64,000 nucleotides of DNA, taken from positions 1,454 to 65,453 of the forward strand of contig DATALD010000096.1 of the NCBI GenBank assembly GCA_036261255.1, in the 5' to 3' direction. Shown here one piece after another: positions 1,324 through 62,973 of this stretch; the first letter of the stretch is position 1, and each line of letters opens with the position of its first letter. The translations under genes and the position numbers were made by a program. The notes below the pieces were generated by a model, which saw only the letters and a program-made list of their open reading frames with translations, did not search any database and was not told where the DNA came from. The DNA comes from Bacteroidales bacterium (GTDB taxonomy: Bacteria; Bacteroidota; Bacteroidia; Bacteroidales; VadinHA17).

Positions 1324-4300
1324 ATGATGGAAGATCAAACAAAGAGCAATATTGATTATGGCAGACTGCTCCATGAACAACAGGAGAGGCTGAAGGAGCT
1401 TGCATGCATTAATCGGACTACAGCCATTCTTAAAGAAGGCAAGCCAATTGATCAATCTCTTCACCAGATCGTTCTTCTCCTTCCCGCAGCATGGCAATAT
1501 CCCGATTATACTGTTGCCCGTATAAGGTTTATGGGCAAGGAATTTGTTACTTCAGATTTTTCTGAAACAGCATGGCGGATGAGCCAGGAATTCACAACAA
1601 TCGATGGCAATGAAGGATTAATTGAGGTTTTCTATACCAACAATTTTAAAGATGAACATGAAGGTCCTTTTCTTAAGGAGGAAAGGGATCTAATCCAGAA
1701 TATCGCCAATATAATAACTGGATATATCAATAGTTACAAAGCAAGGGATATAATCAGCCCCAGAACTGAAGATGATTCTGCCACCGAAGTATCAGAAAGA
1801 AAGCTTCTCCAGAAGTTTATTGACAGGAACAACAGGGAAAGAGACATATTCCACGATCTGATGCCATTCAGGGTAAGGGAAATTCTTCTTGTGGCAAACC
1901 TTTATGACGCATATTCGATCGAGGGCGAAGGCAGGTTCTCAGATCTTATGCTTGGTGAGTATGCCCAGATGAACCTTGCGGCCTCAGTTCCCCGCCTCAC
2001 AGGGGTGTCCGGAGAGGAAGAAACTCTTAACAAACTTAAATCACGACACTATGATCTAATAATAATTATGGTTGGTGTCGAAAAGGAAAGCCAGCTTCAA
2101 CTTTGTAAAAAGATAAAAGATCAGTATCCTTACATTCCTACATTCCTTCTTCTCAACAATGCTTATGATGTTCCGTTTGTGAAAGAGCAGAGAAAGCTGG
2201 GGGTTCGTTTCGACAATTTCTTTGTCTGGACAGGTGAATCAAATGTTTTTTTTACGATGGTGAGCCTTCTTGAAGACAAGGTCAACGCAGACAACGATAC
2301 AAGAAAGGGTCTTATAAGGATCATTATGCTTGTGGAGGATTCAGCAAAGTATTACTCAAATTATCTTCCCCTGCTTTACAGGCTCGTGATGGACCAGACA
2401 AAAAGCCTTGTTGAAGATGTATCAACAGATGAGCTGAACAAAATTCTCAAACTAAAAGCGCGTCCGAAGATTCTCCTTGCGTCAGATTATGAATCAGCGC
2501 TTGAGATCTATAAAAAGTACAGGGATAACCTGCTTTGTATAATCTCTGATATGAGATTTCCAAGGAATGGAACGAAAGATAATTTGGCCGGATATGATCT
2601 GATAAAACAGATCAAGAATGATCTGCCAAATCTCCCGGCAGTATTACAATCCTCTGATCGTGAGAATTCAAAATATGCATTTGAGCTTAAGGCAAACTTT
2701 ATAAATAAGAATTCTGAAAGCCTGTTACAGGATCTTAAATCATTCATTAACTATTACCTTGGCTTTGGTCATTTTGTTTATCGTGACAAAAAAGGAGGAC
2801 AGATAGCAGTTGCCAAATCAATGAAGGAGTTTGAGGAAATACTCCAGACAGTTCCCGAGGATTCACTTTTATATCACGCGATGAAAAACCATTTCTCTCT
2901 CTGGCTTATGTCGAGGGGAGAGGTAAAGATTGCAAGGATGATTGGACCGATGACTGTTGCTGATTTCAAAAGTATTAAGGATATGCGAGAGTTCCTTGTG
3001 GCCCTTATAAGACAGAGGCGCAGGGAATTGAACAGGGGTAAGGTCGTAAATTTCGAGGAGAATGCAATTCTTGATGATACAAATGTTGTTGGCCTTGCAA
3101 GTGGTTCTCTTGGTGGCAAGGGGCGTGGACTGGCATTTATAAATACTCTGCTCTACAGTTTTGAATTGGGCAGGCTCATACAGGGCATCAGGATAAAATC
3201 ACCTGTCACCCTTATTATTGGAACAGAAGAGTTCGATTTGTTCATGGACCGGAACCACCTTTGGGAGAAGGTTACCAAGAATCTTGAATTCAGAGAATTA
3301 CAGAAGCTATTCATTGAAGGAAGCTTAAGCTATACTCTTGAAAAGAAGCTCAGAGTTTTGACAAAACAACTTATAAAACCTCTGGCAGTCAGATCATCAA
3401 GTCTTTTTGAAGATTCAGCAACACAGCCATTTTCGGGAGTTTTCGGAACATACCTTCTTCCTAACAATCATCCTGATCAGGAAATAAGAATGAAACAGCT
3501 TACAAATGCAATTAAGCTTGTATTCTGTTCAATTTATTCGCCTGAATCAAGAAGATTCTTTGAAGCAATCAATATTAAGATTGAACTTGAAAAGATGGCA
3601 GTGGTTTTGCAGACCGTAGTTGGCAACCAGTATGAAAATGTGTTCTATCCTCATATTAGCGGTACTGCACAATCATTTAACTTTTACCCCGTTTCACATA
3701 TGACTCCTGAAGACGGTGTTGCAATTGTTGCTCTTGGACTGGGTCAGTACGTCGTTGAAGGTGAAAATGCATTCAGGTTCTCACCATCTTACCCTTCACT
3801 CGATGTTGTTTCGCAAAAAGATATCTATAAATACAGTCAGGTAAAGTTTTATGCAGTTGACCTGTCAAAAAATCAACCAGATCTTTTGCAAGGTGAGAAC
3901 GCAGGTCTTGCAATGCTTGATATTGCTGTTGCAGAACATCATGGGACTTTAAACCACTGTGCTTCTGTCCTTAGTCCTGATAATGATATGATTACACCTG
4001 GCCTCGATAAGCCTGGCCCAAGGATCGTTAATTTTGCCAACATCCTTAAATATGAATATATCCCGCTCGCATCAACAGTTAAACTTATTCTCGAGATTGT
4101 CGAAGAAGCTATAGGGACCCCGGTAGAAATTGAATTTGCCGTCGACCTTACAAAGGATGATGCTGGTAATGCTTCATTTTATCTTCTGCAGATTAAGCCT
4201 CTTGTGGGTAGCGGAGCAGGTTATTCTATTGATCCCGGAGAAATAAACAAGGATGATCTCATTATGCTCACCAAAAAGAGTATGGGGAATGGGATCATTG

Positions 4301-50407: not shown

Positions 50408-51658
50408 TCACTCATATATCACTGCACCCAGTCTCTTCATATCTTTATAAAAGTCTGGGTATGATTTGGCGACACATTGCGAGTCTCTTAGGTAGATCCT
50501 TCCCGAGGCGCCAAGCGCTACGGTGGCCATGGCCATTGCTATTCGGTGGTCCTCGTGCGACTCAACTTTTGCTCCAATAGGGGTGCCTCCGGTGACAGAC
50601 ATCACATCATCGCTGATATCGATTTTTATATTGAGCTTTTCAAATTCTTTTTTCAATGTGTCAGCTCTGTTGCTCTCCTTGTGAATGAGTCTTGACGCAC
50701 CAGAGATATGTGATGTTCCTTTACAATATGTTGCCAGCGTAACAAGAGGAGGGAACAGATCGGGACAATCAGTTGCATCAAAGTCAAATGCTTTAAGATC
50801 TGATGACGAAACATCAACCTGGTCGTTCTTAATGTTTATCCTGGCTCCAGCTTTGTTAAGTGCATCGAGTATCACTTTATCGCTCTGCTTACTCTTGCAG
50901 CTTAGGCCTGTTACGCTAAGATCACCCTTAATAGCTCCTGCCACAAGAAGGAATGCAGCGCCGCTCCAGTCACCCTCCACTTCGTACCTGCCCGGGATAT
51001 ACTTCTGGTTACCTTCTATTGTAAAGACCTTGTAATCATTATTGCTTATTTCGATGCCAAAATGTTTCAGCAATCCAATTGTCATATCTATGTATGGGCG
51101 GCTCTTAAGATTCTTTACGTTGATCTTTGAATCTTTTTTTGCAAGAGGCAAAGCCATCAATAATCCTGTAAGGAGCTGGCTGCTTATTGATCCGTCAATC
51201 TCGCATTCGCCTCCTTTCAGGGGACCTTTAACTGTCAGCGGAAGATATCCTTCTGTTGTTTTGCAGCTGGCCCCGAGCTGTGAAAGAGCATCGGCTATCA
51301 TCGACATCGGCCTTTTCCTCAATGTTGCTGCTCCTGATAGTGTTATATCGATAGGATAAAGTGCAGCAACAGGGGAGAACATCCTAATAGCAAGGCCAGA
51401 TTCTCCGCAATTCAGCTTTGTTTCTTTCAGCTCTGAGGAACCGGTAATCCGTATTTCACCAGGCTGCGGTTCTACTCTGGCGCCTAATCCTGCTGCAACA
51501 CTCAGTGCTGCAAGTCCATCATCACAGTATGAAGGATTAATAATAATGCTCTCACCGTTTGCCAGAAGAGCTGCAGCTATTGCTCTCTGTGTCATGCTTT
51601 TTGATGCGGGCGCCCTGACTATCCCTTGCACTTCCGACGGATCGAAGGATCTTTCCAT
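50408..51658 (-). CDS. aroA: 3-phosphoshikimate 1-carboxyvinyltransferase (EPSP synthase)
   Basis: 416 aa. APASKSMTQRA, LNCGESGLAIRM, DHRIAMA and the typical length. Confidence 0.88.
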   Translation of the reverse strand: MERSFDPSEVQGIVRAPASKSMTQRAIAAALLANGESIIINPSYCDDGLAALSVAAGLGARVEPQPGEIRITGSSELKETKLNCGESGLAIRMFSPVAALYPIDITLSGAATLRKRPMSMIADALSQLGASCKTTEGYLPLTVKGPLKGGECEIDGSISSQLLTGLLMALPLAKKDSKINVKNLKSRPYIDMTIGLLKHFGIEISNNDYKVFTIEGNQKYIPGRYEVEGDWSGAAFLLVAGAIKGDLSVTGLSCKSKQSDKVILDALNKAGARINIKNDQVDVSSSDLKAFDFDATDCPDLFPPLVTLATYCKGTSHISGASRLIHKESNRADTLKKEFEKLNIKIDISDDVMSVTGGTPIGAKVESHEDHRIAMAMATVALGASGRIYLRDSQCVAKSYPDFYKDMKRLGAVIYE

Positions 51659-51682
51659 ATCACTATCTTTTATCTTTTAAAA

Positions 51683-52795
51683 TTATTTTGTTTCAGTACT
51701 CCCAGAGCCATCGTTCATGACTTTCATCTGGTGGTTTATCGACTCCTGGTGTATCGCTTTAAAAATGGTGTCAATAAACTCGGTACTGAGACTTTTTGTT
51801 TTAGCCCTGGATAAAACTTTATTAATGATTTCATCCCAACGGGTGCTTTGCAAGATAGTAATATTATTTTCCTTTTTATATTGTCCTATTGTTTCTGCGA
51901 CTTTCATTCTTTGTTCAAGAATATCTAAAAGATGATCATCGTAGACGTCAATTCTCTGTCTTAGTTCACCAAGTACATCAAGCAATTTAGGATCAGAAGG
52001 GTTGGCATTCCTGAAGATAAGCCTGCTAAGCAGCTCCTGAAGGTCATTTGGTGTGAGCTGTTGAGCTGAATCGCTTAAAGCTTTTGCCGGGTCGATATGC
52101 GATTCGATCATCAGGCCGTCGAAGTTGAGGTCCATCGCTTTTTGAGAAATTTCGTGGAGAAACATTCTTGCTCCTGAGATATGGCTTGGATCGCAGATAA
52201 TTGGCAGGTCAGGAATACGACGTCTTAGTTCAATAGGAAGCTGCCAGTTAGGCTGGTTCCTGTAAAGGGTTTTCTCGTATGCGGAGAATCCCCTGTGAAT
52301 AGCGCCAATGCGGGTTATACCTGCACGTGCAATCCTCTCAATTGCACCCATCCACAGATCGAGATCGGGATTGATCGGGTTCTTGACGAGCACCATTACA
52401 TCAACACCTTTAAGGGCATCTGATATCTCCTGAACAGTAAACGGATTCACCGAAGTTCTTGCCCCTATCCAGAGCAGGTCTATACCATATTTCAGAGCTT
52501 CATAGACATGTTTCTCATTGGCTACTTCGGTTGCTACAAGCAAGCCGGTTTCCTGTTTTACAGTTCTCATCCACTTGAGACCTTCACTGCCAACCCCTTC
52601 AAATGAATTTGGACGTGTACGAGGTTTCCAGATACCGGCCCTGAAAATGCTTATCTGGTCTATTTTAGCAATCTGCCTTGCTGTCTCAAGTACCTGCTCT
52701 TCGCTTTCAGCGCTGCATGGTCCTGCAATCAGGAAAGGTTTTCCTTTGTAACCTCTCCAGTCTTTTACCGGTGAACTTTCGTATTTAAGTACCAT
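51683..52795 (-). CDS. Bifunctional DAHP synthase (class I-beta) / chorismate mutase
   Basis: 370 aa. AGPCSAES...IFRAGIWKPRT...DPSH (KDO8P/DAHPS I-beta). The C-terminal LRQRIDVYDDHLLDILEQRMKVAETIGQYK is an AroQ chorismate mutase helix. Confidence 0.8.
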   Translation of the reverse strand: MVLKYESSPVKDWRGYKGKPFLIAGPCSAESEEQVLETARQIAKIDQISIFRAGIWKPRTRPNSFEGVGSEGLKWMRTVKQETGLLVATEVANEKHVYEALKYGIDLLWIGARTSVNPFTVQEISDALKGVDVMVLVKNPINPDLDLWMGAIERIARAGITRIGAIHRGFSAYEKTLYRNQPNWQLPIELRRRIPDLPIICDPSHISGARMFLHEISQKAMDLNFDGLMIESHIDPAKALSDSAQQLTPNDLQELLSRLIFRNANPSDPKLLDVLGELRQRIDVYDDHLLDILEQRMKVAETIGQYKKENNITILQSTRWDEIINKVLSRAKTKSLSTEFIDTIFKAIHQESINHQMKVMNDGSGSTETK

Positions 52796-52842
52796 ATTTT
52801 ATTGTTTTCAATTATTTAACAGCAATAATGATTAAAAGATTC

Positions 52843-53688
52843 TTAGTGCAGTATTTTCCTGATCTTATTTGCTTCTTCCATCAGGTTTTTTAAGCCAACG
52901 GTATCCTCTTTAACTATCATGTCCCTGAAGGCATTCATTTTTTCAACGTAAGTATCGAGTACTTCAAGAATGTATTTTGAGTTTTCAAGGAAGATAGGGG
53001 CCCAAGTCTCACTATTACTTTTCGCAAGACGGACAGTGCTTTCAAAACCTCCCCCTGCGAGTGCAAGAATATTATGCTCCTCTTTCTCTTTATCGAGAAC
53101 GCTTAGAGCGAGGGAGAATGATGTTATGTGTGAGATATGTGAAACATAAGCAACATGGATATCATGATCTTCAGAGTTCATGAAGATCTTTTTCATGTTC
53201 AGGATATCGAGCATTTTTTCAACTGTCTCGAGAGCATCTGCATCGCTCAACTCCTTGTCGCAGATTATTGCAGTTTTATAGTCGAAGAGTCTTCCGATAG
53301 CTGCCAGGGGACCTGAGAACTCTGTTCCGGCCATGGGATGAAGAGCAACATATCTCCCACGCCCGGGATGTTTCTTTGATGCTTTTGCTATCCCAGACTT
53401 TGTAGATCCCATGTCTGTAACAACTTTTGATGTTCCATGGATCATGTCAAGGATCTTTATTATTATCTTTCTATTTGTGTTTACAGGTGTGGAAAGTATT
53501 ATAAGATCACTTTTGGCAATTGCATTTTCCAGAGTATCAATATCATCAACAAGTCCTGTGAGTTTTGCAATATTACTATGCTGAATGTTTTTTTCAACCC
53601 CGGTAATGTGAGTGGCAAAACCTCTTTTTCTGAGGTCTACCATCAGTGAACCCCCGATAAGTCCTATTCCTACAACAGCTACATTCAT
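52843..53688 (-). CDS. tyrA: Prephenate dehydrogenase
   Basis: 281 aa. N-terminal VAVVGIGLIGGS Rossmann motif and HPMAG motif. Confidence 0.8.
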   Translation of the reverse strand: MNVAVVGIGLIGGSLMVDLRKRGFATHITGVEKNIQHSNIAKLTGLVDDIDTLENAIAKSDLIILSTPVNTNRKIIIKILDMIHGTSKVVTDMGSTKSGIAKASKKHPGRGRYVALHPMAGTEFSGPLAAIGRLFDYKTAIICDKELSDADALETVEKMLDILNMKKIFMNSEDHDIHVAYVSHISHITSFSLALSVLDKEKEEHNILALAGGGFESTVRLAKSNSETWAPIFLENSKYILEVLDTYVEKMNAFRDMIVKEDTVGLKNLMEEANKIRKILH

Positions 53689-53704
53689 TTTCTTCTTTTC
53701 TGTA

Positions 53705-54871
53705 TTAATTGATTTCCAAAGTTTTTAATCTTTTGTAAGCTTCATTAAGCCTTTCTTCGGTAGCACATAGTGAGATCCTTATATATCTCTGACCATTATC
53801 TCCGAATATAAACCCTGGAGTTATGAAAACATGCACCTTGATAAGGAAATTTTCAATAAAGGTTTCGCACGAAGGGATTTCATCAGGGATCCTTCCCCAC
53901 ATGAACAGACCTGTTTGCTTTATATCATAATCGCATTTAAGCAGATCCATTATCTTCTCAACTATTTTTCTCCTTTTCTCATAGACTGAATTGACTTCAT
54001 CGTACCATGCAGGTGGATTATTCAATGCATTCACGGCTGCAGCCTGTAATCCAAGGAACATCCCTGAATCCATATTGCTTTTCACCTTGAGTATACTGTT
54101 AATGAGCTCATTTTTCCCTGCAACCATACCAATACGCCAGCCGGCCATATTATGTGATTTGCTAAGTGAGTTGAGCTCAAGAGCAACATCCATTGCACCT
54201 TCAGTACAAAGAATGCTTTGATAATCCTTATTCAGAACAAAACTGTATGGATTATCGTTGCAGATAAGGATGCCATGTTTCAATCCGAAATCAACAATTT
54301 TCCTGAAAAGGGCAGGGGATGCCTTAGTTCCGGTAGGCATGTGAGGATAATTCAACCACATCAATTTTACCCGGCTGAGATCAGTCCTCTCAAGAGCTTC
54401 AAAGTCAGGGAACCACCCTTTTTCTTTAACCAGATCGTATTTCTTTATTACCCCACCAACAAGGTTTGTTACAGATGAATATGTAGGATAACCAGGGTCA
54501 GGGACAAGAACCTCATCGCCAGGATTAACATACGCCATGCTTATATGCATTATTCCTTCCTTGCTTCCCATTAGCGGCAGTATTTCTTTTTCGGGATCAA
54601 GAATTACATTGAAATACTTTTTATACCAGTCCGCAAAAGCTTTCCTCAGAGCAGGAGTTCCTTTATAGCTCTGGTAGCCATGAGATCCGGGTTTAGAAGC
54701 CTCCATTGAAAGAGCTTCGATAGTTTCCTTTGAAGGAGGTTGGTCGGGGCTTCCGATACCAAGGTTTATAATATCAGCTCCTTCCTTTCTCATCCTGTCT
54801 ATCTGGGCGAGCTTTGTCGAGAAATAGTATTCCTGGACAAGATTTGTACGGTCAGCGGGTTTAATTATCAT
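53705..54871 (-). CDS. Class I/II PLP-dependent aminotransferase (probably aromatic/prephenate aminotransferase)
   Basis: 388 aa. NLGIGSPD, NPGYPTY-like (PDPGYPTYS), NYPHMPTG and SLSKSHNMAGWRIG (PLP lysine). Sits inside the aromatic operon. Confidence 0.75.
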   Translation of the reverse strand: MIIKPADRTNLVQEYYFSTKLAQIDRMRKEGADIINLGIGSPDQPPSKETIEALSMEASKPGSHGYQSYKGTPALRKAFADWYKKYFNVILDPEKEILPLMGSKEGIMHISMAYVNPGDEVLVPDPGYPTYSSVTNLVGGVIKKYDLVKEKGWFPDFEALERTDLSRVKLMWLNYPHMPTGTKASPALFRKIVDFGLKHGILICNDNPYSFVLNKDYQSILCTEGAMDVALELNSLSKSHNMAGWRIGMVAGKNELINSILKVKSNMDSGMFLGLQAAAVNALNNPPAWYDEVNSVYEKRRKIVEKIMDLLKCDYDIKQTGLFMWGRIPDEIPSCETFIENFLIKVHVFITPGFIFGDNGQRYIRISLCATEERLNEAYKRLKTLEIN

Positions 54872-55694
54872 AGCTCATTTCTCCTTTAAAGTATACTCCT
54901 AAGATTTCAAGATTGCTTGTATGATGTTCAAGTATCCTCCTGATAACTGTTGATTTTGTATCCTTGTCTAGTTCAAGGTCGAGGTAGAACATGTATTCCC
55001 ATTCACCATTGAGCCTGGGAACAGATTGTATTTTTGAGAGGTTGATGTTAAGATTTGAGAGGATCACAAGTACAGCAGCAAGAGAACCTGGCTTATGTCC
55101 GGTTGAAAAACAGATCGATACTTTATTGCCTTTTTTGTTTCCTTTTTGTTCATGGCCCACGACAAGGAATCTTGTGTAATTCTGTTTGTATGTTTCTATT
55201 CCTTCGGCAAGTATTTCGAGATCATAGATTTTTGCTGCCTGCATTGGGGCAATTGCTGCAACTCCCACCAGGTTATTCTCTCGTACCTGCCTGGCGCTGG
55301 CAGCGGTATCTTCGCTTTCAACAAGAGTTTTTCCGGGATGTTCATTCAGAAAAGCCATGCACTGGGCAATAGCAATCGGATGAGATCTTATCTCCCTGAT
55401 ATCTTCCATTTTCTGACCTTTCAGAGCCATCAGGTTCTGCCTGATCCGGAGGTTCTGCTCTCCAAGTATCTTTAATCCCGATTCTCTGATTAATGTATAA
55501 TTATACAGAATGCTGCCTGACCGGGCATTTTCAATTGCCATCACTGCAAAATCAGCTTCACCTTCCTTTACTTTATTAAGAGTAAGATCAAATGTAGGAC
55601 ATGGAACTATCTCAATGTCTTCATCATAAATGAAATACTGCCTAGCTGCAGCTTCGTGAAATGAACCTTTTTCTCCCTGGATAGATACTTTCAT
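54861..55694 (-). CDS. pheA: Prephenate dehydratase
   Basis: 277 aa. IQGEKGSFHEAAA, VMAIENARSGSI, TRFLV and a C-terminal ACT domain (GSLAAVL). Confidence 0.85.
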   Translation of the reverse strand: MKVSIQGEKGSFHEAAARQYFIYDEDIEIVPCPTFDLTLNKVKEGEADFAVMAIENARSGSILYNYTLIRESGLKILGEQNLRIRQNLMALKGQKMEDIREIRSHPIAIAQCMAFLNEHPGKTLVESEDTAASARQVRENNLVGVAAIAPMQAAKIYDLEILAEGIETYKQNYTRFLVVGHEQKGNKKGNKVSICFSTGHKPGSLAAVLVILSNLNINLSKIQSVPRLNGEWEYMFYLDLELDKDTKSTVIRRILEHHTSNLEILGVYFKGEMSYDN

Positions 55695-55706
55695 TGTAGC
55701 ATAATT

Positions 55707-55740
55707 AAAATGAAAAAGGCCCCTTTTTCCGGGGCCTTTG
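55707..55740 (-). terminator. Attenuator terminator upstream of pheA
   Basis: On the minus strand AGGCCCC-GGAAAAA-GGGGCCT (55717-55737) is followed by TTTTTCATTTT. It ends 12 nt before the pheA ATG. Confidence 0.7.
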
Positions 55741-55780
55741 TTTTATTTAATTTTATAATTAACAATATACAATATGCCCC

Positions 55781-55846
55781 TTATCTGTTTTTAAAATAAA
55801 AATAGAAGTAAAAAAAGGTGGCAAATATGTTCTGTGAAATCTTCAT
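55781..55846 (-). CDS. Phe/Tyr-rich leader peptide MKISQNIFATFFYFYFYFKNR
   Basis: The minus strand reads ATG AAG ATT TCA CAG AAC ATA TTT GCC ACC TTT TTT TAC TTC TAT TTT TAT TTT AAA AAC AGA TAA. Six Phe and three Tyr codons fall within 11 positions. GGGGC directly after the stop can pair with GCCCC of the terminator's 5' arm. Confidence 0.65.
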   Translation of the reverse strand: MKISQNIFATFFYFYFYFKNR

Positions 55847-55863
55847 ATCGTTGTTTCAGCTTA

Positions 55864-55893
55864 CAAAAATATATTAATTTTCATATTCTCAAA
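55864..55893 (-). promoter_or_regulatory. Candidate Bacteroidota-type promoter (TTTG-N18-TATTTTTG) for the Phe/Tyr leader
   Basis: On the minus strand TATTTTTG is at 55871-55864 and TTTG at 55893-55890. The leader ATG is 17 nt downstream of the -7 box. Confidence 0.35.
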
Positions 55894-55974
55894 TAAAATA
55901 TTAAAATTATTATTGAATCTATTGAAAAAATAAAGCTGGAATTAATTATTGTATTGTTATTTGACCACCCACCC

Positions 55975-56556
55975 TCATTTATGCCTTTTCTTCAACACAT
56001 CTTCGATCTCTTCCATTGTTGTTCCCTTTGCTTTTAGAAGGATTAACAGGTGATATAAAAGATCTGCCGCTTCGTTTTTAAAGAGATCCATGTTATCATC
56101 TTTCGATTCAATGACAAGCTCTACAGCTTCTTCTCCAACCTTTTGTGCAACTTTATTTATCCCTTTTCTGAAGAGTTTGTTGGTATATGAATCACCTGCG
56201 TTGTCTTCAATCCTTTGATTAATAATTTTTTGTAACCTGTATTGAAAACCTTTCGCCGTTTCTTCTTTAAAACATGATGTTGTCCCTTCATGGCATGTTG
56301 GTCCGACAGGGTCGACTTTTATTAAAATTGAATCACTATCGCAATCAGCCATGATTGTTTTAACAAGAAGGAAATTACCAGATGTTTCTCCTTTTGTCCA
56401 CAGCCTGTTCTTGCTGCGACTGAAGAATGTTACTTTGTTTTCCTTTATTGTCTTCTCCAATGCTTCCTCGTTCATATAACCTACCATCAGAACCTGCATT
56501 GTCTCATTGTCCTGGATTACGGCCGGAACAAGTCCTTTACTGAAATCAATTTTCAT
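55975..56556 (-). CDS. hisIE: Bifunctional phosphoribosyl-AMP cyclohydrolase / phosphoribosyl-ATP diphosphatase
   Basis: 193 aa. LVPAVIQD, FFSRSKNRLWTKGETSGN and CHEG (HisI), then a C-terminal EEAVELV...EAADLLYHLLILL (HisE). Confidence 0.9.
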   Translation of the reverse strand: MKIDFSKGLVPAVIQDNETMQVLMVGYMNEEALEKTIKENKVTFFSRSKNRLWTKGETSGNFLLVKTIMADCDSDSILIKVDPVGPTCHEGTTSCFKEETAKGFQYRLQKIINQRIEDNAGDSYTNKLFRKGINKVAQKVGEEAVELVIESKDDNMDLFKNEAADLLYHLLILLKAKGTTMEEIEDVLKKRHK

Positions 56557-62116: not shown

Positions 62117-62973
62117 TACATTATCATTTTTTCAATTGGTATTACAAGGATACCTTCAGCTCCGGCTTTTCTAAGCTGATCGATCCTTTCCCAGAATTCA
62201 TCTTCTTTCACTACTGAGTGCAGGCTGCACCATCCTTCCTGTGCGAGTGGCAGGACAGTTGGACTCTTCATGCCTGGCAGTATTGAACAGATCTTCTCGA
62301 TTGCTGATGTAGGCGCATTGAGGAGAATGTATTTGTTCTCCTTTGCGTTTTTAACTGACCTTATCCTGAAAAGGAGTCTTTCGAGTATTGCCAGCTTTTC
62401 AGCGTCAAGATTCTTATTCCCGATAATAACAGCCTGGCTTTTAAGTATAGTCTCAACTTCATGAAGACCATTTGTGAGCAATGTGCTTCCAGAGCTTACA
62501 ATATCACAAACTGCATCAGCAAGGCCGATTCCGGGAGCAATCTCTACGCTTCCACTTATCTCTTCAATATCTGCTTTAATACCATTCTTCACCAGAAACG
62601 ATGACAGGATATTGGGGTAGCTTGTTGCAATCCTTTTATTCATAAAATATGCAATCCCCGTATACTTGTCTTCTCTTGGAATGGCAAGACTTAGCCTGCA
62701 ATGTGCAAAGCCAAGCTGTTCTATTACATTGACATCCTTTCCGGCTTCAAGCATCATATTTTCTCCGAGTATCCCAATATCGGCTACCTGTTGTTCGACA
62801 TATTGTGGAATATCATCATCCCTGAGAAACAATAGTTCAACAGGGAAATTCCTAGCTTTTGATTTCAGAACTCCTGCGCCATTTGAGAATTTTATCCCGC
62901 ATTCTTCAAGAAGCAGCTTTGAATTATCACTAAGCCTGCCGCTTTTCTGGATTGCAATTTTAAGTTCGCTCAT
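62116..62973 (-). CDS. hisG: ATP phosphoribosyltransferase (long form)
   Basis: 285 aa. LKIAIQKSGRLS, DIVSSGSTL and a C-terminal regulatory domain. 1-nt overlap with hisD. Confidence 0.9.
   Translation of the reverse strand: MSELKIAIQKSGRLSDNSKLLLEECGIKFSNGAGVLKSKARNFPVELLFLRDDDIPQYVEQQVADIGILGENMMLEAGKDVNVIEQLGFAHCRLSLAIPREDKYTGIAYFMNKRIATSYPNILSSFLVKNGIKADIEEISGSVEIAPGIGLADAVCDIVSSGSTLLTNGLHEVETILKSQAVIIGNKNLDAEKLAILERLLFRIRSVKNAKENKYILLNAPTSAIEKICSILPGMKSPTVLPLAQEGWCSLHSVVKEDEFWERIDQLRKAGAEGILVIPIEKMIM

Follow-up and report, generated by a model that had tools for sequence, protein, structure and literature searches.

A 64,000-nt stretch of DNA from an uncultured Bacteroidales bacterium (GenBank assembly GCA_036261255.1, contig DATALD010000096.1, positions 1,454 to 65,453; hereafter the window, in whose own numbering all coordinates are given) carries, directly before its pheA gene, what is very probably a ribosome-mediated (leader-peptide) transcription attenuator of the pheA-aminotransferase-tyrA-DAHPS/CM-aroA operon, where DAHPS/CM stands for a DAHP synthase fused to chorismate mutase. 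The element would sense the supply of charged tRNA-Phe and tRNA-Tyr and, judging from the sequence and from folding models, would most likely switch the operon on only when phenylalanine or tyrosine is short. We propose that transcription would begin, from a promoter of the Bacteroidota type, about 12 nt before the ATG of a 21-codon leader, which would be translated at once. With phenylalanine and tyrosine plentiful, the ribosome would reach the UAA and lay its footprint over the adjoining GGGGCAUAUUGU (in region 2); after its release, region 1, located in the 5′ part of the leader, would capture region 2, while regions 3 and 4 would form the hairpin AAAGGCCCC/GGGGCCUUU followed by a U-tract, and RNA polymerase would stop about 12 nt before pheA. 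With phenylalanine or tyrosine scarce, the ribosome would stall on codons 11–18, with region 1 covered and its leading edge short of region 2; region 2 would then pair with region 3 once made (GGGGC:GCCCC plus UUGU:ACAA), the terminator would be blocked and the operon transcribed. Control of this sort is classic and already known, and nothing in it departs conceptually from the attenuation model.

The pheL-like leader, MKISQNIFATFFYFYFYFKNR followed by TAA, is a minus-strand open reading frame (ORF) of 21 codons (55781..55846; ATG at 55846, TAA at 55783–55781) that was recognised from the ORF list and from its conservation. Its codons 8–18 read FATFFYFYFYF, with phenylalanine or tyrosine in nine of the eleven, as had been pointed out in an earlier inspection of the letters of this region (the sequence-only reading). 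The regulatory run proper, as delimited by codon-level conservation, is FFYFYFYF at codons 11–18 (55793..55816), and codon 8 (55825–55823) adds one more phenylalanine. Among the 1067 short ATG-initiated ORFs on both strands of the window, the leader is the only one with at least eight aromatic residues in ten, the runner-up having six, and 20 block-shuffled windows yielded two ORFs this aromatic in total, or about 0.1 expected per window; the aromatic richness of the leader exceeds chance. Its codon choice showed no obvious rare-codon bias (in the genes of the window TTT/TTC are used at 0.52/0.48 and TAT at 0.64), and no Shine-Dalgarno sequence was found at the leader.

Upstream of the ATG, a −33 element TTTG (55890..55893) and a −7 element TATTTTTG of the form TAnnTTTG (55864..55871) can be read on the minus strand, separated by a spacer of 18 nt and with the latter ending 17 nt before the ATG. 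This promoter-like pair had been described in the sequence-only reading and is present as described. TTTG / TAnnTTTG is the Bacteroidota promoter consensus, and a sigma-70 scan did not report the leader promoter, as is expected for a promoter of this type. By analogy with the mapped pheA start site of Flavobacterium psychrophilum, transcription is predicted to start near 55858, which would give a 5′ untranslated region (UTR) of about 12 nt.

Directly after the TAA comes GGGGC (55780–55776), again in agreement with the sequence-only reading, then some 40 A/U-rich nucleotides and an intrinsic terminator hairpin, AAAGGCCCC-GGAAAAA-GGGGCCUUU (55715..55739, minus strand; 9 bp, six of them G-C), which was obtained both by a terminator scan and in folds. 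The U-rich tail UUCAUUUU (55707..55714), visible in the sequence and in the terminator scan, ends 12 nt before the pheA ATG at 55694. The hairpin had previously been placed at AGGCCCC-GGAAAAA-GGGGCCT (55737–55717); it is there, but its stem extends further to the 9 bp of 55739–55715. Similarly, the tail had been given as TTTTTCATTTT, of which the U-tract and the distance of 12 nt to pheA hold, whereas one T had been counted twice, as part of both stem and tail. Overall, the region 55400–56300 contains five terminator-like sites against 0.4 expected in the terminator scan. The scan also picked out the hairpin at 55739–55715 on the plus strand, where GTTTTATTTA comes after it; with no plus-strand gene converging there, this is probably only a matter of hairpin symmetry.

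In species-representative genomes, a scan yielded 80 orthologous loci with PheA identities of 68–87%, nearly all from metagenome-assembled genomes (MAGs) of Bacteroidales, and two of these had too little upstream sequence to be judged. An F/Y-rich leader of the same design and in the same place precedes pheA in 77 of the 78 usable loci, contrary to the absence of an F/Y-rich leader at orthologous loci by which the sequence-only reading would have been refuted. The leader consensus is MNIVYKYFISFYYFYFYFKNR, with its stop about 85 nt before pheA; the ATG is invariant, and 64 of 78 leaders, that of the window counted in, have exactly 21 codons. The single locus without a leader, L058, has its pheA 53 nt behind another gene and is missing the downstream aromatic genes. 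Alignment of 75 distinct leaders (A2), one per species, showed that the promoter is retained as well, TTG/TTTG being kept at the same spacing and TAnnTTTG being near-invariant. The terminator hairpin was found in all 75 relatives as a stem of 8–11 bp in 58 distinct sequences, with compensatory stem changes (column 128, for example, occurs as U-G, U-A or C-G), and in 74 of them U makes up at least five of the eight nucleotides following the stem.

The regulatory run itself varies in a characteristic manner. Over codons 11–18 the first position is a near-invariant T (5 non-consensus cells in all), the second varies between T and A, which amounts to a Phe/Tyr switch, and the third varies between T and C, which is synonymous. 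More specifically, 105 of the 123 non-consensus codons (85%) still encode phenylalanine, tyrosine or tryptophan, compared with 16 of 72 random single-nucleotide neighbours (22%). This pattern of variation and the retained aromatic identity therefore reveal selection on codon identity, as regulatory codons would show. In seven species (L053, L054, L056, L060, L066, L069 and L076) codon 15 is TGG, giving runs of the type ...YCFWFYF or ...YYFWFYF, which suggests from sequence that the third aromatic amino acid may also be sensed in this clade. Leader and hairpin are retained in this clade although his genes are missing from the 4 kb upstream. In two further loci, L023 and L043, the usual stop has been lost by small changes and the leaders run on to a later TAA, for 28 and 30 codons respectively, through the GGGAUUUUUGUAUAC box, an arrangement also met in distant orders, whose region 2 is part of the ORF.

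These observations bear on a simpler account, by which the hairpin would be no more than an intrinsic terminator serving the his operon upstream, and the F/Y-rich ORF would have arisen by chance because the intergenic DNA is T-rich. The hisIE gene does end 129 nt before the leader ATG with no terminator between, and the frequency of such ORFs in shuffled windows, low as it is at about 0.1, is not nil. Against this, frame, length and aromatic run are kept in 77 of 78 species with selection acting at the codon level, the leader has a conserved promoter of its own, and both the clade without upstream his genes and distant orders with other neighbours retain leader and hairpin. We have rejected this account on the basis of context and conservation, and consider it barely credible. 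The hairpin may additionally end his transcripts, which would not explain the ORF. As the Trp clade keeps the leader without his genes and L058 loses it, the element follows pheA and not hisIE.

For attenuation, the RNA should be able to adopt mutually exclusive folds, and four segments with such complementarity were identified on the minus strand. Region 1 consists of an inner part, UGCC(A)CCUU in codons 8–11 (55815..55823), which in minimum free energy (MFE) folds pairs with AAGGGGCA (55782–55775) with one bulged A, and an outer part, AACGAUAU in the 5′ UTR and start codon (55845..55852), which folds onto AUAUUGUU (55768–55761). Region 2, the switch segment AAGGGGCAUAUUGUAUAUUGUU (55761..55782), begins inside the stop codon and can pair with either region 1 or region 3. 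Region 3, ACAAAGGCCCC (55731..55741), serves both as the 5′ arm of the terminator and as the 3′ strand of the antiterminator. In the folds, helix 2:3 is made of GGGGC (55780–55776) with GCCCC (55735–55731) and UUGU (55772–55769) with ACAA (55741–55738), and helix 3:4, the terminator, of 55739–55731 with 55723–55715. The sequence-only reading had rested the antiterminator on GGGGC:GCCCC; this pairing exists but would be too weak alone, and the longer helix adds UUGU:ACAA and encloses an A/U hairpin, UUAAUU-AUAA-AAUUAA (55747..55762; arms 55762–55757 and 55752–55747). A similar A/U hairpin occupies the same place in four example folds (the window, L006, L053 and L057). The region 1:2 helix had no place in that reading, and is added here to give the full 1:2 / 2:3 / 3:4 architecture.

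Both alternative helices involving region 2 are preserved across the 75 species. The antiterminator of the relatives is an 11-bp helix, GGGAUUUUUGU:GCAAGGGUCCC, in which GCAAGGGUCCC is the 5′ arm of the terminator; helix 2:3 is paired in 95% of cases compared with 39–72% when the partner is slid. Helix 1:2 is paired in 87%, compared with 31–74% with a slid partner. Its inner part is formed in the relatives by codons 9–10, AUCUCC with GGGGAU (the columns equivalent to the inner helix of the window, 37–42:80–85, are paired in 85%), and its outer part by codons 4–6, GUAUACAAA:UUUGUAUAC, paired in 88%. Double-change cells in helix 1:2 number 25 against 13.5 ± 3 in shuffles, with none of 500 shuffles reaching 25, and column pair 25:92 has changed from U-A to C-G in 12 species. 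Mean segment energies were −17.0, −15.2 and −16.7 kcal/mol for helices 1:2, 2:3 and 3:4, respectively. RNAalifold applied to the full MAFFT alignment gave seven consensus pairs, all belonging to the antiterminator; the terminator escaped it, since loops of variable length put the 3′ arm out of register, and was then assessed by per-sequence folds anchored on alignment columns. Taken as an anti-antiterminator, helix 1:2 has a role that we regard as rather probable, with less assurance than attenuation as such.

The position of the ribosome was modelled with a footprint reaching 12–15 nt past the first nucleotide of the A site. As long as the A site holds an F/Y codon, up to and including the last one (F18), the modelled leading edge goes no further than 55783–55780 and region 2 is free; once the stop codon has entered the A site, the edge lies at 55771–55768 and GGGGCAUAUUGU is covered. 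Each of the 75 leaders was then folded with this footprint masked and with the RNA ended before the 3′ arm of the terminator. A ribosome stalled on the F/Y run left the antiterminator to form in 72–75 of the 75 species, and one at the stop codon allowed it in none. For the free full-length RNA, helix 1:2 together with the terminator is the MFE structure in all 75 species. The switch put forward in the sequence-only reading, namely that a ribosome at the stop codon would mask GGGGC and let the terminator form whereas a stall on the F/Y codons would free GGGGC for the antiterminator, is matched by these footprint-masked folds.

Conservation of this strength could also be read as that of a functional small hydrophobic peptide, acting at the membrane or in trans, encoded by an ORF with its own terminator. 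The peptide sequence is indeed strongly conserved, including an N-terminal MNIVYKY and a basic C-terminal KNR, and leader peptides acting in trans are known, at least as peTrpL of Sinorhizobium is presented. A peptide function would have to accommodate, however, that phenylalanine, tyrosine and tryptophan interchange freely within the run while non-aromatic changes are rare, that the most variable residues, 9–10, differ as amino acids (IS, AS, AP, NL and others) and keep a C/U-rich RNA able to pair with GGGG, and that a Tyr-to-His change at codon 5 is accompanied by a compensating change in its non-coding partner. Moreover, the element always stands directly before pheA and overlaps the terminator/antiterminator pair, and distant lineages share the aromatic run only. 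We therefore hold a peptide function as the explanation of the conservation to be highly improbable; a trans function alongside attenuation is possible.

The same features speak to how the aromatic amino acids would be sensed. A nascent-peptide arrest sensor of free aromatic amino acids, similar to TnaC, or a mechanism involving Rho, could be envisaged instead of the sensing of tRNA charging, and the conserved peptide with basic residues next to the stop would suit an arrest peptide. Arrest peptides need specific residues, whereas this run tolerates F/Y/W swaps, occurs in leaders with lengths of 18–21 codons and differs fully in other orders. The polarity would in addition be opposite, abundance leading to stalling and stalling to read-through, which is senseless for a biosynthetic operon; as to Rho, an intrinsic terminator with a matching antiterminator is present, so Rho is not needed. 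Both variants strike us as extremely improbable, and sensing of tRNA charging by a translating ribosome is preferred.

Lastly, the box GGGGAUUUUUGUAUACAGAUA, the homologue of region 2 in the relatives, is almost invariant over the 75 species, beyond the needs of simple pairing, and helix 2:3 shows no covariation in the clade. Both facts could be accounted for by a trans-acting factor or ligand that binds the box (a TRAP-like protein, a small RNA or a riboswitch-like aptamer), with the ORF being incidental or auxiliary. A segment that pairs with two partners is expected to be frozen, however, and codon-level selection on the run would have no role with such a factor. No riboswitch or T-box was matched in Rfam at the gathering threshold. 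A further comparison is with other orders, in which the box is not conserved, as opposed to the aromatic run and the 2:3 complementarity. Binding of a factor to the box is thus very unlikely in our view.

This comparison, which favours a leader-peptide attenuator, drew on six distant loci chosen from diverse PheA representatives. Five of the six have a leader rich in phenylalanine, tyrosine and tryptophan followed by a GC hairpin and a U-tract directly before pheA: Wenyingzhuangia of the Flavobacteriales (MNLFNTYGFYYFFFFTKEERLFVC), Pedobacter (MKFNATYYFGYFYYSNKSRA) and Parapedobacter (MMLTRNNAYWFFGFFYFSSESRD) of the Sphingobacteriales, a Cyclobacteriaceae MAG of the Cytophagales (MNSNQRFYFWFYYYQSLRDLR) and another Bacteroidales MAG (MSNFGAYYFYFLTFR). 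The sixth, a Prolixibacteraceae MAG, is a doubtful, weaker case. These distant leaders resemble one another in the aromatic run, while the remainder of the peptide is not shared. Within-clade covariation being uninformative for helix 2:3, it was replaced by a duplex-energy test between orders, for which nine lineages were considered, the window and F. psychrophilum counted in. In seven of the nine, the RNA emerging from a run-stalled ribosome is complementary to the 5′ arm of the terminator, with z-scores of −3.3 to −6.8 relative to shuffles. The region 2/region 3 pairs are themselves unrelated between orders, as illustrated by GGGAUUGU / ACAAUCCC, AGAGACUUUU / AAAAGUCUC, GCCGGGAUU / AGUCCCGGC and GGGACU / AGUCCC. 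The design is common to the window, its clade, F. psychrophilum, Wenyingzhuangia, Pedobacter, Parapedobacter and the Cyclobacteriaceae MAG. With such leaders in the Bacteroidales, Flavobacteriales, Sphingobacteriales and Cytophagales, mixed Phe/Tyr (sometimes Trp) leader-peptide attenuation is, on sequence grounds, the apparent rule before pheA across the Bacteroidota.

A number of points weigh against the attenuator as proposed. Some concern the helices: covariation of helix 1:2 resides mainly in one column pair and perhaps reflects few evolutionary events, and the outer 1:2 helix of the window is built from other nucleotides than in its relatives. Column-wise covariation of helix 2:3 is absent among the 75 species of the clade, because both strands are frozen, and its support between orders is an energy z-score rather than a column-by-column test; in two of the distant lineages, L085 and L086, the region 2:3 complementarity is weak. 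The antiterminator of the window is discontinuous, with an internal loop between its segments of 5 bp and 4 bp, and it is less stable than the terminator, at −9.6 to −13.6 versus −14.8 to −16.6 kcal/mol. Others concern the energetics of the switch. When the free transcript is truncated, helix 2:3 prevails over helix 1:2 in 61 of 75 species, and in the full-length RNA with a stalled ribosome the terminator remains the MFE structure in 62 of 75. As the terminator stays the thermodynamic optimum despite the stall, the decision to read through must be kinetic, and the modelled read-through would depend on an assumed kinetic window. More generally, each step of the mechanism, from leader translation and stalling to termination at the hairpin and read-through dependent on phenylalanine and tyrosine, is deduced from sequence and in silico folding, and tight coupling of transcription and translation has, to our knowledge, not been demonstrated in the Bacteroidota.

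How the element relates to known regulators was examined by Rfam searches and in the literature. At the gathering threshold the whole window had no Rfam matches, including any riboswitch, T-box or Bacteroid-trp, and a relaxed scan gave 37 matches with no T-box or riboswitch among them. The best relaxed match was to RF01859, Phe_leader, over the full-length model and on the correct strand (34.3 bits, E = 3.7e-4). The element was not accepted as a member of RF01859, its score falling well short of the gathering threshold of 55, and the likeness is probably convergent, arising from U-rich codons and a terminator. As for the gamma-proteobacterial pheL-pheA system itself, it similarly combines a short ORF bearing a phenylalanine run with a GC hairpin and U-tract before pheA and with terminator/antiterminator alternatives. 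In E. coli, the run in pheL is made up of phenylalanine codons alone and TyrR controls tyrA; the leader in the window, in contrast, mixes phenylalanine and tyrosine (and tryptophan in one clade), its operon also holds tyrA, DAHPS/CM and aroA, and its promoter is of the Bacteroidota type.

The four segments with exclusive pairings recall the E. coli trpL attenuator, as does the placement of the regulatory codons a few codons before the stop. Also alike are the block of segment 2 by a ribosome at the stop codon, the 1:2 + 3:4 structure of the free RNA, and an antiterminator less stable than the terminator with a kinetic choice between them, the decision in the classic trp attenuator being kinetic. 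In trpL the tryptophan codons lie within segment 1, whereas in the window most of region 1 precedes the regulatory codons, and these occupy the loop of helix 1:2; amino acids and phylum differ too. Having one leader with codons for several amino acids made by the operon is a property shared with the enterobacterial ilvGMEDA (Ile/Leu/Val) and thr (Thr/Ile) leaders, which mix codons in such a way that shortage of any one amino acid derepresses; the amino acids are different and there is no sequence relationship.

A counterpart is found in the same phylum. In F. psychrophilum, the element THC0290_N_0195 before pheA-aspC3 has been annotated as leader-peptide attenuation (Guerin et al. 2021, PMC9723704, Table S7). 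Its pheA has a mapped start site, a 170-nt 5′ transcript and the leader MNTNNTFYSNNSFYFYWNIGRDCYMVI, and shows condition-dependent read-through, in poor medium, with no Rfam match (PMC9723704). These transcriptomic data lend the attenuator indirect experimental support from another order. Like the element in the window, it lies before pheA and an aminotransferase gene and has a mixed aromatic run, SFYFYW, followed by a box, GGGAUUGUU, that is complementary to the 5′ arm of the terminator, ACAAUCCC, and then by a U9 tail; it folds by the same logic. It differs in that its 27 codons read through region 2, with the stop 20 nt after the start of region 2, whereas the stop in the window abuts region 2, and the two leaders align poorly outside the aromatic run and the GGGAUU box. 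Bacteroid-trp is another leader-peptide attenuator of the Bacteroidota (Weinberg et al. 2010, PMC2864571), with other regulatory codons, sequence and structure. For the Bacteroidales, a literature search for an explicit account of a pheA leader found generic or neighbouring statements only: that Bacteroides “potentially use a pheL gene” (Gurvich et al. 2011, PMC3082878), and that a putative attenuator from Merino's database precedes B. thetaiotaomicron pheA>hisHb>aroA-aroQ>tyrA (Song et al. 2005, PMC1173090).

The operon downstream of the element occupies 50408..55694 on the minus strand and was assigned from the ORF list and Pfam matches. Following pheA, which encodes a PDT-ACT prephenate dehydratase (55694–54861), are genes for a class I/II aminotransferase (54871–53705), for the prephenate dehydrogenase TyrA (53688–52843), for the DAHP synthase fused to chorismate mutase (52795–51683) and for the EPSP synthase AroA (51658–50408). 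The sequence-only reading had described the downstream genes as making enzymes of the Phe and Tyr branches together with common-pathway steps, and Pfam bears this gene set out. Gene order is the same in relatives, and the PheA of the window is closest to uncultured Bacteroidales proteins, with 78–88% identity. In locus L061, an insertion of about 120 nt (about 4003–4125) with inverted ends GAAACCCACGTG ... CATGTGGGTTC lies between terminator and pheA start; it is possibly a small mobile element or a repeat.

Upstream of the leader lie hisF and hisIE, according to Pfam matches. No terminator-like hairpin was found between the hisIE stop and the promoter of the pheA leader in the window (55975–55894, minus strand), nor does one intervene before the leader in 60 of the 62 loci, the window counted in, that have hisIE upstream; in such loci a median of 197.5 nt separates the hisIE stop from the leader ATG. 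Further upstream, a candidate second leader-peptide attenuator was noticed before hisG (63124–62973, minus strand). It comprises a His leader ORF, MIRKNTHHHHHFPVSQAR, with five consecutive CAT codons (63124->63068), and a terminator, ACCCGUC-loop-GACGGGU followed by UUUUCUGUUUUU, before the hisG ATG at 62973. An analogous hisG leader, MSLNQLHHHHFHICSQAKC, is present in F. psychrophilum (PMC9723704). Since the window also carries this His-codon leader and terminator, attenuation would appear to be used repeatedly in the source genome.

Overall, the published record of Bacteroidota pheA leaders amounts to one supplementary-table entry and two passing remarks, with no Rfam family, and the present analysis gives the aromatic operon of this uncultured Bacteroidales lineage a well-supported regulatory annotation, as well as an alignment and helix map that are enough to seed a curated RNA family. 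Bacteroidota start translation without a Shine-Dalgarno sequence, and their transcription-translation coupling has been little studied; for these reasons a conserved attenuator whose 5′ UTR measures only about 12 nt would be a convenient natural reporter of coupling. A broader interpretation, which we put forward tentatively and consider unlikely as a whole, is that the attenuator is also the sole intrinsic terminator of the his operon, forming a his-phe/tyr ‘supraoperon’, that one leader integrates two to three aromatic amino acids, and that the element represents a phylum-wide, uncurated RNA family. If this were true, transcripts from the His-regulated hisG promoter would enter the aromatic genes only when phenylalanine or tyrosine (or tryptophan in one clade) is scarce, and the integration by a single leader would serve both branches and the common pathway.

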